Below, piece after piece: positions 7,307-46,551 of a stretch of 64,000 bases of DNA. The notes under the pieces were generated by a model that saw only the letters and a list, made by a program, of their open reading frames with translations, had not been told where the DNA came from and did not search any database. Numbering within the stretch: the first letter of the stretch is position 1; the number at the start of each line of letters is the position of its first letter. The stretch comes from Escherichia coli (GTDB lineage: Bacteria > Pseudomonadota > Gammaproteobacteria > Enterobacterales > Enterobacteriaceae), in the NCBI RefSeq assembly GCF_016026235.1, contig NZ_CP065613.1. One strand, written 5' to 3'. The position numbers and the translations under genes were made by a program.

Positions 7307-8346
7307 CACGCAAGGCACAAAGTCGCGCGATGTTTGGCGGATTCGATGCCCAGCTCAATCAACTCCATTACCTGGATTGCCTGGCTTGCCGGAACTGGAT
7401 TTTCACCATCGCCATTTAACGCATCACGAATCGCCGCATAGTAAGCCGGATAATTCCCAGGCACCGTCAACAGCGTTTCTTCGACACGTTCCTCACCTTC
7501 CACGCGGGTAAGTACGCCATCACGCATATCGTAGCCCCAGTCTTCCTGCGGCAGACGCTCGCCATTTTTCAGACGTTCTTCCTGTGGATCGAGGCCATAT
7601 TTCACATAACTGCCTCGGGATCCATGCACGATATACCGTGCTGACTCAGCGGCTGCCAGCATGGTACCGTGTAAAATGACTCGCCGCTGCGGATAGGACA
7701 AGATGGCGTGGAAATAATCGGTCGACTGCGCTCCGGGCCGTAACTGTGCCAAATCTACCGTCATGCTGACCGGTAAACCAAATAGCGTAATGGCCTGATC
7801 AAGAAGATGTGGTGCTAAATCGTACCAGATACCGCTGCCTGGGCCGCCCTGTTCACGCCAACGATCGCGCACCTGCGGACGGAAACGGTCAAAATGAGAC
7901 TCAAAGTAAGCAACTTCACCCAGCACGCCTTCCGCGAGCAAACCTTTTAGCGTCAAGAAATCGCTATCCCAACGACGGTTATGGAATACAGACAGCACAC
8001 GCCCCAGGCTTTTTGCCAGCGCATCCAGCTCTCGCGCTTGTGACAGTGTCACGGTAAAGGGTTTATCAACGACCACATGTTTACCCGCCTCAAGCGCTGC
8101 TTTGGCTAACGGGAAATGGGTATCGTTGGGTGTAGGAATAACAATCAGGTCTATGTTGGGATCGTTAAACAGATGCTTCGGCTCAGAGACAACCGTAACC
8201 GTTGGCCAGTCGGCTTTTACTTTTGTTTCATCACTGCTGGAGATTACCGCCAGTTCCAGCCCGGGCGTGCCCGCAATCAGGGGCGCATGGAAGGTTTTGC
8301 TCGCATAACCATACCCAATCAACCCAACACGGATGTTGTCGCTCAT
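7306..8346 (-). CDS. ydgJ: Gfo/Idh/MocA-family NAD(P)-dependent oxidoreductase
   Basis: 346 aa from ATG at 8346 (MSDNIRVGLIGYGYASK, Rossmann fold); longer listed ORF has an unsupported N-terminal extension. Confidence 0.85.
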   Translation of the reverse strand: MSDNIRVGLIGYGYASKTFHAPLIAGTPGLELAVISSSDETKVKADWPTVTVVSEPKHLFNDPNIDLIVIPTPNDTHFPLAKAALEAGKHVVVDKPFTVTLSQARELDALAKSLGRVLSVFHNRRWDSDFLTLKGLLAEGVLGEVAYFESHFDRFRPQVRDRWREQGGPGSGIWYDLAPHLLDQAITLFGLPVSMTVDLAQLRPGAQSTDYFHAILSYPQRRVILHGTMLAAAESARYIVHGSRGSYVKYGLDPQEERLKNGERLPQEDWGYDMRDGVLTRVEGEERVEETLLTVPGNYPAYYAAIRDALNGDGENPVPASQAIQVMELIELGIESAKHRATLCLA

Positions 8347-42719: not shown

Positions 42720-42884
42720 GCCTTATCTCCACCTCTTCGCGTCATTACGCGATATTCATTAAAGTGGCGAAAGCATGACAGCAATCACAAAAAAATGAAA
42801 ATAACAAAAAGAGAAAACACTTTTGCCATTTTGCTAACAAACAGGAAGGAGATGCGAGGGAGAACGCGCTCCCTCGAGAGGAAA

Positions 42885-42974
42885 TCAGTGCAGCGCGGCA
42901 GTCAAACCCACGGCTACGATCAAACCGAGGACGATAATCGTTGTTACCAGTGAAAATTTAAGGTCGGTGCTCAT
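42885..42974 (-). CDS. ynhF: Small membrane protein YnhF (29 aa)
   Basis: 30-codon ORF MSTDLKFSLVTTIIVLGLIVAVGLTAALH with an upstream GGAG RBS; single transmembrane helix; below ORF-track cutoff. Confidence 0.65.
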   Translation of the reverse strand: MSTDLKFSLVTTIIVLGLIVAVGLTAALH

Positions 42975-43212
42975 CAAGTTTTCTCCTTTTTTATTACCAC
43001 ACAAAAAGTGATATTACGCATTTTTACACACAGTGATGAAAAAATCTCCCGTCATTTATAATGATAAGTGTTTTTACCACTTCCCCTTTTCGTCAAGATC
43101 GGCCAAAATTCCACGCTTACACTATTTGCGTACTGGCCATTGACCCCTTCCTGACGCTCCGTGTCGTTTTTCCGGCGTACCGCAACACTTTTGTTGTGCG
43201 TAAGGTGTGTAA

Positions 43213-43228
43213 AGGCAAACGTTTACCT
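43213..43228. promoter_or_regulatory. PurR box (AGGCAAACGTTTACCT) upstream of purR
   Basis: 16-bp match to the PurR operator consensus (ACGCAAACGTTTTCNT class), centred about 53 bp upstream of the purR ATG. Confidence 0.7.
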
Positions 43229-43272
43229 TGCGATTTTGCAGGAGCTGAAGTTAGGGTCTGGAGTGAAATGGA

Positions 43273-44298
43273 ATGGCAACAATAAAAGATGTAGCGAAAC
43301 GAGCAAACGTTTCCACTACAACTGTGTCACACGTAATCAACAAAACACGTTTCGTCGCTGAAGAAACGCGCAACGCCGTGTGGGCAGCGATTAAAGAATT
43401 ACACTACTCCCCTAGCGCGGTGGCGCGTAGCCTGAAGGTTAACCACACCAAGTCTATCGGTTTGCTGGCGACCAGCAGCGAAGCGGCCTATTTTGCCGAG
43501 ATCATTGAAGCGGTTGAAAAAAATTGCTTCCAGAAAGGTTACACCCTGATTCTGGGTAATGCGTGGAACAATCTTGAGAAACAGCGGGCTTATCTGTCGA
43601 TGATGGCGCAAAAACGCGTCGATGGTCTGCTGGTGATGTGTTCTGAGTACCCAGAGCCGTTGCTGGCGATGCTGGAAGAGTATCGCCATATCCCAATGGT
43701 GGTGATGGACTGGGGTGAAGCAAAAGCTGACTTCACCGATGCGGTCATTGATAACGCGTTCGAAGGCGGCTACATGGCCGGGCGTTATCTGATTGAACGC
43801 GGTCACCGCGAAATCGGCGTCATCCCCGGCCCGCTGGAACGTAACACCGGCGCAGGCCGCCTTGCCGGTTTTATGAAGGCGATGGAAGAAGCGATGATCA
43901 AGGTGCCGGAAAGCTGGATTGTTCAGGGTGACTTTGAACCCGAATCTGGTTATCGCGCCATGCAGCAAATACTGTCGCAGCCGCATCGCCCTACTGCCGT
44001 CTTCTGTGGTGGCGATATCATGGCAATGGGCGCACTTTGTGCTGCTGATGAAATGGGTCTGCGCGTCCCGCAGGATGTTTCGCTGATCGGTTATGATAAC
44101 GTGCGCAACGCCCGCTATTTTACGCCGGCGCTAACCACGATCCACCAGCCAAAAGATTCGCTGGGTGAAACAGCGTTCAACATGCTGTTGGATCGTATCG
44201 TCAACAAACGTGAAGAACCGCAGTCCATTGAAGTGCATCCGCGCTTGATTGAACGCCGCTCCGTGGCTGACGGCCCGTTCCGCGACTATCGTCGTTAA
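43273..44298 (+). CDS. purR: Purine nucleotide synthesis repressor PurR (LacI family)
   Basis: 341 aa; N-terminal [26 protein letters not shown]. Confidence 0.95.
43300..43315. promoter_or_regulatory. Second PurR box (CGAGCAAACGTTTCCA) inside the first codons of purR
   Basis: Operator-like GCAAACGTTT core within the purR coding start, consistent with known purR autoregulation via two operators. Confidence 0.6.
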
Positions 44299-45227
44299 TC
44301 ACCCGTTGCGGGAGTCTCTTCCGGCTCCCGCAGCCACTCCTTATTCAGCGTCTCACTATCGCCGAGATACTCAAGCAGCCAGGTTAACGCAGGCGACATA
44401 TCATTTTGCTGCCATGTCAGACAACATGCCGAATCCGGAAAGGGGTTTTCCAGTTCTAATGCCACCCACTTCCCCTCATTAAGCCACGGTTTGGCGAAAT
44501 GTGTTGGCACCATCCCTATGCATAATCCTGCCGAGATACAGGTTGCCGATGATTCCCAGTCAGGCACGACAACTCTTTTTTGGTTATCCAGCAACCAGGT
44601 AATACGTTTAGGTAGCGTTCGCGAGGTGTCTTCGCGCACCAACGACGGCCAGTTGCGCAACGTATCATCGCTGAACGGGCCATCCATCAACGCCAGCGGG
44701 TGGTGGCTGGCAACAACGCAACTCCAGCTTAGCATCCCCATATCCCGGAAGGCATAACGACCGCCTACCGGAATCGCGCGTGTTGCGCCAATCGCCAGTT
44801 CCACGCGCCCATCGGAAAGCGCATCCCAGACACCGTTAAACACTTCCTGAAAGACCAGAAGTTCGACGTCGTCAAAATGGCGATAAAAATCAACGATCAT
44901 CTGCCGTGTACGTTCTGGCCTGACAATATTATCCACTGCGATAGCTAACTGACCGCGCCAGCCGTTCGCTATCTGCTGACATTGCTGGCGGGTGATCTGC
45001 ATTTTTTTGACAACAGAGCGCCCTTCTTTGAGAAACCACGCTCCGGCAGCGGTCAGTTCCACATCACGGTGCCGTCTTTCAAAGAGCGGCACCGCCAGCC
45101 ACTCTTCCAGCTGACGCACGGTATAGCTGACCGCAGAAGGAACGCGATGCAACTCCTGTGCCGCAGCGCTAAAACTACCATTACGCGCTACCGCATCAAC
45201 AACTTCGAGAGAATATTCTGACCACAT
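44295..45227 (-). CDS. ydhB: LysR-family transcriptional regulator (PunR)
   Basis: 310 aa; N-terminal LysR HTH; divergent from ydhC. Confidence 0.9.
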
Positions 45228-45339
45228 AGTCTGCCTGCAAAATTTTTGAAACCAGTCATCAAATATTACCGTTTCACAACACTAATTTCACTCCCTACAC
45301 TTTGCGGCAGTGTTTAATTGAGAGATTTAGAGAATATAC

Positions 45340-46551
45340 ATGCAACCTGGGAAAAGATTTTTAGTCTGGCTGGCGGGTTTGAGCGTACTCGGTTTTCTGG
45401 CAACCGATATGTATCTGCCTGCTTTCGCCGCCATACAGGCCGACCTGCAAACGCCTGCGTCTGCTGTCAGTGCCAGCCTTAGTCTGTTCCTTGCCGGTTT
45501 TGCCGCAGCCCAGCTTCTGTGGGGGCCGCTCTCCGACCGTTATGGTCGTAAACCGGTGTTATTAATCGGCCTGACAATTTTTGCGTTAGGTAGTCTGGGG
45601 ATGCTGTGGGTAGAAAACGCCGCTACGCTGCTGGTATTGCGTTTTGTACAGGCTGTGGGTGTCTGCGCCGCGGCGGTTATCTGGCAAGCGTTAGTGACGG
45701 ATTATTATCCTTCACAGAAAGTTAACCGAATTTTTGCGACCATCATGCCGCTGGTGGGTCTATCTCCGGCCCTGGCTCCTCTGTTAGGAAGCTGGCTGCT
45801 GGTCCATTTTTCCTGGCAGGCGATTTTCGCCACCCTGTTTGCCATTACCGTGGTGCTGATTCTGCCTATTTTCTGGCTCAAACCCACGACGAAGGCCCGT
45901 AACAATAGTCAGGATGGTCTGACCTTTACCGACCTGCTACGTTCTAAAACCTATCGCGGCAACGTGCTGATATACGCGGCCTGTTCAGCCAGTTTTTTTG
46001 CATGGCTGACCGGTTCACCGTTCATCCTTAGTGAAATGGGCTACAGCCCGGCAGTTATTGGTTTAAGTTATGTCCCGCAAACTATCGCGTTTCTGATTGG
46101 TGGTTATGGCTGTCGCGCCGCGCTGCAGAAATGGCAAGGCAAGCAGTTATTACCGTGGTTGCTGGTGCTGTTTGCTGTCAGCGTCATTGCGACCTGGGCT
46201 GCGGGCTTCATTAGCCATGTGTCGCTGGTCGAAATCCTGATCCCATTCTGTGTGATGGCGATTGCCAATGGCGCGATCTACCCTATTGTTGTCGCCCAGG
46301 CGCTGCGTCCCTTCCCACACGCAACTGGTCGCGCCGCAGCGTTGCAGAACACTCTACAACTGGGTCTGTGCTTCCTCGCAAGTCTGGTAGTTTCCTGGCT
46401 TATTAGTATCAGCACGCCATTGCTCACCACCACCAGCGTGATGTTATCAACAGTAGTGCTGGTCGCGCTGGGTTACATGATGCAACGTTGTGAAGAAGCT
46501 GGCTGCCAGAATCATGGCAATGCCGAAGTCGCTCATAGCGAATCACACTGA
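45340..46551 (+). CDS. ydhC: MFS drug/purine-nucleoside exporter (PunC)
   Basis: 403 aa; Bcr/CflA-type MFS. Confidence 0.9.

Follow-up and report, generated by a model that had tools for sequence, protein, structure and literature searches.

The PUR boxes of purF, purHD, purMN and other genes of this kind are built on the same 16-bp palindrome as those of purR (ACGNAAACGTTTGCNT) and are bound by the same repressor-corepressor complex. However, these boxes are located between the -35 and -10 elements, where they block initiation and give strong repression, while the two boxes of purR are reported to lie downstream of its promoter and repression is weak. The purB operator (He & Zalkin 1992) resembles the second purR operator: it too is a PUR box located within the coding region, past the promoter, with an action on elongation, and reviews on roadblocks name purB alongside purR. 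Still, purB has a single intragenic box, while purR has a leader box as well as a box in its codons, the latter, unlike that of purB, lying in DNA that encodes the repressor's own DNA-binding helix-turn-helix. Like purR, lac (O1/O2/O3) and gal (OE/OI) use two LacI-family operators, one of them within the coding sequence. Looping of the lac and gal type calls for a phased, conserved spacing and a bridging repressor, and the purR pair shows neither.

For purR itself, the title of Rolfes & Zalkin 1990 (J Bacteriol 172:5758) states that two sites, located downstream, are required for autoregulation. According to papers that cite it and to the evidence paper of RegulonDB, the same work reported footprint protection by purified PurR and relief of repression by mutation, and a secondary source attributes to it a Kd of 0.1 nM. 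In vivo, Cho et al. 2011 (PMC3159470) report a purR ChIP region at 1,735,528-1,736,095, detected only with adenine, and list for it the motif AGGTAAACGTTTGCCT; read on the other strand, this motif is the leader operator, here called O1. Coordinate arithmetic from the purR start shows that this region also contains the operator inside the codons, O2; at a ChIP-chip resolution of a few hundred bp the two are not separated, and only O1 is listed as a motif. According to the same study, PurR binds in the reading frame at both purB and purR and stops elongation. In papers on transcriptional roadblocks, PurR is counted among the natural ones, and these papers note that stronger regulation may take several roadblocks. 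A paper on PurR of Yersinia pestis makes no mention of autoregulation.

Here, we analysed one stretch of 64 kb of Escherichia coli DNA, referred to as the window. The open reading frame at 43273-44298 on the plus strand encodes 341 amino acids, and its homologues contain the Pfam domains LacI and Peripla_BP. When 501 bases around the two sites were compared with 5426 complete E. coli genomes, 5424 of them matched, and purR is annotated in 5424 of the 5426; the best E. coli genomes among the matches listed are 99.8% identical and have both purR and cydH annotated at this place. The local gene order is mepH, sodB, ydhP, cydH (minus strand), purR (plus), punR (minus) and punC (plus). The gene is E. 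coli purR. Compared with purRo1 and purRo2 of E. coli K-12, the gene, both operator sequences and their positions relative to the ATG (-60 and +28) are the same, and we see no difference. Downstream of purR, at 44295-46551, punR is followed by punC. The former encodes a LysR-type activator and is convergent with purR, the two stop codons overlapping by 4 nt, while the latter encodes a purine nucleoside transporter. Together, purR, punR and punC make up a small cluster of purine-related genes that includes the one for the repressor.

An earlier note on this DNA, made from the letters alone, had described two PurR-box-like sites at the purR start and proposed autoregulation through two operators. 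This proposal agrees with the identity of the gene and with the literature, in which both operators are described, and both sites agree exactly with the K-12 coordinates given by Cho 2011 and by the GalR study discussed below. We conclude that the two sites are very probably the purR operators purRo1 (leader, 43213-43228) and purRo2 (codons 10-15, 43301-43316), acting by a corepressor-dependent roadblock. The pair as such is already known (Rolfes & Zalkin 1990).

The two sites were scored with a symmetrised PurR weight matrix, built from 27 independent, ChIP-supported PurR motifs taken from Cho et al. 2011 (PMC3159470, Table 1). The entry of purR itself was left out of the matrix to avoid circularity. 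Both O1 and O2 are 16-bp imperfect palindromes with a central CpG, fit ACGCAAACGTTTGCGT and score in the range of known sites. They also share the 10-mer GCAAACGTTT, which occurs twice in the 64 kb, once in each site and 88 bp apart, where about 0.38 occurrences are expected.

O1 (AGGCAAACGTTTACCT, 43213-43228) has its first base 60 nt 5' of the purR start codon at 43273, and the letters and coordinates given for it in the earlier note are exact. It scores 21.0-21.5 bits (exact p=4e-8), which is above the median of the PurR training sites and the highest score in the 64 kb. Among purR loci from 80 Enterobacteriaceae species, O1 is found in 80/80 at positions -57 to -60, with at least 18.4 bits in 79 of them. 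The upstream alignment shows AAAGGCAAACGTTTACCT as an almost invariant island between variable flanks. O1 is a strong PUR box.

The second site was given as CGAGCAAACGTTTCCA at 43300-43315, with letters and coordinates that are exact but one base out of register with the centre of the palindrome. In that register it scores -18.8 bits and fails as a PUR box, while in the CG-centred register, GAGCAAACGTTTCCAC at 43301-43316, it scores 10.4-11.9 bits (p=2e-5) and ranks 4-8 in the window. This one-base shift is the sole error in the earlier reading. Even after the shift the match is marginal: about one match of its strength is expected per 64 kb, and PurR matches of similar strength occur at 7855 and 10774, inside unrelated reading frames. 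O2 is in the low tail of the known PurR sites, yet 3 of the 27 bona fide sites score below it in a leave-one-out comparison. The probability of a site scoring at least as high as O2 within 100 bp on either side of O1 is, on the other hand, about 0.007-0.009. A scan with a PurR matrix had been named in advance as the deciding test, with poor scores as the refutation; O1 passes it clearly, while the matrix alone leaves O2 borderline.

Conservation and codon choice provide support for O2 that is independent of the matrix score. O2 spans from the second position of codon 10 to the second position of codon 15, where codons 10-15 encode R-A-N-V-S-T, and it is fixed at +28 in 80/80 Enterobacteriaceae species. 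Within this comparison set, the protein identity is 92-100% and the median pairwise nucleotide identity of the coding sequences is 0.84. Synonymous constraint was measured as the third-position entropy among sequences sharing the same amino acid. Across the gene it averages 1.01 bits, and just 5% of the degenerate codons fall below 0.15 bits. For codons 11-14 (GCA AAC GTT TCC), the values are 0.10, 0, 0 and 0.10 bits, and codons 11-16, at 0.14 bits, are the most synonymously conserved stretch of the gene, ranking first among its 246 windows. Codons 3, 4 and 6-10, just 5' of O2, vary freely at synonymous positions.

The same signal is seen in the choice of codons. When all 4608 synonymous encodings of RANVST are scored for PurR, the median is -4.3 bits and the codons of E. 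coli rank 17, i.e. the actual O2 codons are in the top 0.4%. The version CGC-GCA-AAC-GTT-TCC-ACN, present in 44 of the 80 species, ranks 1/4608. The mismatches of O2 to the box, at positions 1, 15 and 16, are fixed by the codons for Arg10 and Thr15. O2 is a weak box, yet, given these ranks, it comes close to the best PUR box that can be written for this peptide. Selection beyond that on the neighbouring function is thus visible at both operators, at O1 as an island between variable flanks and at O2 as synonymous constraint and codon optimality. However, the constraint on O2 could partly reflect GalR binding or a promoter for cydH on the opposite strand.

Third positions are also invariant or nearly so in the 80 species at three further codons, codon 5 (AAA, 43285-43287), codon 16 (ACA, 43318-43320) and codon 19 (TCA, 43327-43329). 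These sit outside the 16-bp PUR box, and their constraint may come from a wider PurR or GalR footprint or from an opposite-strand promoter.

A natural control is provided by residue 12, which is located in the turn of the helix-turn-helix. The usual LacI-family turn is AGVS. O2 needs AAC at codon 12 (43306-43308), i.e. Asn12. Among the 120 homologues retrieved, ANVS marks those with at least about 87% identity together with one protein at 80%, while nearly all others have AGVS. Gly12 (AGVS) is found in orthologues from other Enterobacterales families, i.e. Erwinia, Providencia, Yersinia, Hafnia and Pectobacterium, at 79-82% identity. In these orthologues O2 is missing, with scores of -16.6 to -0.5 bits, and the third positions of codons 11-14 are variable. 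At most a weaker leader site, AGGCAAACGATTAACA, is present at -60 to -62 with 9.4-10.9 bits, and a PurR scan of the Providencia purR leader found no site at all. In total, O2 is lacking in six Gly12 orthologue loci of other lineages within L081-L089 (L087 duplicates L086 and is not counted). The single 80%-identity protein with Asn12, at locus L089, carries both sites (21.0 and 14.5 bits).

More distant PurR orthologues were few in a search of representatives at 50% identity, and two of them, P0123 and P0127, were used. At one locus, a low-GC orthologue with 55% identity, neither O1 nor O2 was found. According to Ravcheev 2002, as quoted in a citing paper, purR sites are absent in Vibrio and Pasteurellaceae. 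Asn12, O2 and a strong O1 occur together in all 80 Enterobacteriaceae loci, in the window and in L089. Since AAC is needed as codon 12 for O2, the Gly12-to-Asn change accompanies the intragenic operator without exception in the loci sampled. A regulatory site appears to be coupled to an amino acid change in the turn of the repressor's own helix-turn-helix.

The roadblock model depends on where transcription of purR starts. A strict sigma-70 consensus scan of 42850-43400 gave no promoter on either strand. However, conservation points to a candidate purR promoter at 43081-43116 on the plus strand, with a -35-like TTCCCC (43081-86), a 17-bp spacer, a -10-like CAAAAT (43104-09) and a start near 43116. 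In the alignment of the window and the 80 loci, CAAAAT is conserved to at least 97% and TTCCCC to at least 80-97% per column. The RegulonDB site positions for purR, which we take to be +105.5 and +193.5, fit a start at about 43116. The start would then be upstream of both sites. A putative Shine-Dalgarno sequence, GGAG at 43260-43263 on the plus strand, is found 9 nt before the purR ATG in a conserved block at 43256-43267. Upstream of the candidate promoter, TATAATGATAAGTGTTTTT at 43054-43072 is Fur-box-like, with 13/19 matches to GATAATGATAATCATTATC by eye, and is poorly conserved across the Enterobacteriaceae alignment. A Fur titration assay is said to have recovered purR.

Regulation proceeds as follows. 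When hypoxanthine or guanine is plentiful, a PurR dimer with its corepressor binds each 16-bp PUR box. With the two boxes probably located beyond the purR start, bound PurR would act as a roadblock to the elongating RNA polymerase, without the promoter being occluded, and the outcome is a weak negative autoregulation of purR. PurR binding, its dependence on the corepressor and the effect on purR expression come from published work. This autoregulation is reportedly about two- to three-fold with both sites needed, and O1 is said to be bound about six-fold tighter than O2, in a non-cooperative manner. PurR is a dimer that lacks the C-terminal tetramerisation helix of LacI. The centres of O1 and O2 are 88 bp, or 8.4 helical turns, apart, and the distance varies between 85 and 88 bp among species. 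Because the spacing is unphased and drifting and the repressor is dimeric, a DNA loop between O1 and O2 is rejected and two independent roadblocks fit.

The purR leader is also transcribed in the other direction. On the minus strand, at 42882-43272, cmscan gives a full-length match (positions 1-388, 394.5 bits, E=6e-103) to the Rfam family STnc550, which corresponds to the mRNA of cydH/ynhF, long 5' UTR included. The gene cydH (ynhF; 42885-42974, minus strand, RefSeq annotation; translation MSTDLKFSLVTTIIVLGLIVAVGLTAALH followed by a stop) encodes a 29-aa accessory subunit of cytochrome bd-I and is divergent from purR. The 5' UTR is roughly 300 nt and antisense to the entire purR leader, including O1. 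A block of the leader at 43130-43180 is strongly conserved, most columns being at least 90% identical in the window and the 80 loci. On the minus strand this block coincides with base-paired parts of the STnc550 consensus structure, so it is probably a portion of the cydH 5' UTR. When block 43125-43212 was folded as plus-strand RNA, it was no better than its shuffles (z=0.42), and a structured leader or attenuator on that strand was rejected. A weak hairpin with a T-run at 43152-43172 was likewise rejected, as it is within chance (1 found, 0.9 expected).

From this overlap it can be speculated that the main role of O2, and perhaps of O1, is on the opposite strand. PurR or GalR at O2 would occlude the cydH/ynhF promoter, O1 would block elongation of its transcript, and the effects on purR would be partly indirect, through face-to-face transcription. 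We consider this unlikely, although it is the most probable of the alternatives. If 43272 is the true start, O1 lies at about +52 and the centre of O2 at about -36 of the cydH transcript, and a -10-like TATTGT (reverse complement of 43279-84) is found 6 nt before the STnc550 5' end. An RNase study describes a 5'-extended ynhF mRNA that is trimmed by RNase G, and the constraint at codons 5, 16 and 19, outside the PUR box, would also be accounted for. Further, in Salmonella Typhimurium a MarA/RamA ChIP peak is located at purR<>ynhF, with a marbox GCCCGTTTCGCTACA. The E. coli counterpart of this marbox, GCTCGTTTCGCTACA, is in purR codons 7-11 (about 43291-43305, minus strand) and overlaps O2 by 5 bp.

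However, several points speak against this reading. The Rfam boundary is exactly at purR ATG-1, and this is also the case in Salmonella, Klebsiella and L089, i.e. in every species tested, so it may be an annotation artefact, a cut at the neighbouring gene, and not a mapped start. The consensus scan, as described above, gave no promoter on the minus strand either. The marbox is a weak motif match (p=6.9e-4), is 73 bp away from the centre of the peak and is atypically spaced, being too close to the putative -10 for the known marbox promoter classes. In the papers searched, no data were found on a response of cydH to purines or PurR, and none of them mentions STnc550. Fusion experiments reported from 1990 link both operators to the expression of purR itself. 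Dual use of the purR operators by the cydH transcript is therefore a lead only. It is also compatible with the autoregulatory roadblock at purRo1 and purRo2, and the one does not exclude the other.

Another possibility is that O2 is in fact an operator of GalR, or a site shared within the LacI family, so that PurR binding is incidental and O1 alone carries the autoregulation. A GalR ChIP-chip study (PMC5110547) describes binding at ynhF/purR, where both sites were inferred. The study lists the O2 16-mer itself for purR/b1658, and purR is one of six GalR sites validated by ChIP-qPCR. The left half of O2 is PurR-like and the right half GalR-like, and O2 is the best GalR-matrix match in the window. 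With this matrix (consensus GTGNAANCGNTTNCAC), it reaches 13.3 bits (O1 9.2 bits). However, this is just under the training minimum of 13.6 bits, i.e. below every GalR training site, and the score is carried by the right half, GTTTCCAC, with 11.6 bits, while the left half is poor at 1.6 bits. Codon choice also speaks for PurR. The codons are optimal for this repressor (rank 1 or 17), compared with ranks 21-25 of 4608 for GalR, and the commonest synonymous variant, CGA to CGC, adds 2.6 bits to the PurR score but just 0.8 bits to the GalR score. In addition, no regulation of purR by GalR was seen in PMC5110547, and the title of the 1990 paper states that two sites are required. Taken together, this makes a GalR operator with purely incidental PurR binding a very improbable explanation.

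Finally, there is hardly any probability left for O2 being a non-operator, i.e. a chance resemblance beside a real O1 that arises because the helix-turn-helix (KRANVST) has to be encoded or because of a generic constraint at the mRNA 5' end. Its score is marginal, with similar chance scores in reading frames elsewhere in the window, and an invariant amino acid sequence fixes codon positions 1 and 2 anyway. However, codons 11-14 show little or no third-position variation in 80 species, compared with the free codons 3, 4 and 6-10 and the gene average, the actual codons are in the top 0.4% for PurR score, orthologues encoding AGVS vary freely at the third positions, and a neighbour of this quality beside O1 has a chance probability of about 0.008.

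With purRo1 and purRo2 as the preferred reading, a wider scenario can be put forward tentatively, at low confidence. O2 would be an Enterobacteriaceae-specific gain that required, or fixed, the Gly12-to-Asn change (GCN GGN GTT to GCA AAC GTT) and that is also located in the promoter region of cydH/ynhF (STnc550) on the opposite strand. A single 16-bp element would then be under simultaneous constraint from a residue of the protein turn, from PurR autoregulation and from the control of a respiratory small-protein gene.

The main result re-identifies a finding from 1990, and its value is that a reading of the raw sequence can recognise real operators. In addition, O2 of purR is a modest but well-supported case of a regulatory site lying within codons, which shows up as a local loss of synonymous variation. 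If the antisense overlap with cydH/ynhF is functional, the PurR regulon would extend to a respiratory accessory subunit, and the locus would be a natural case of face-to-face promoters sharing operators. If the dual-use reading is true, the purine status of the cell would be linked to the expression of the cytochrome bd-I accessory subunit.
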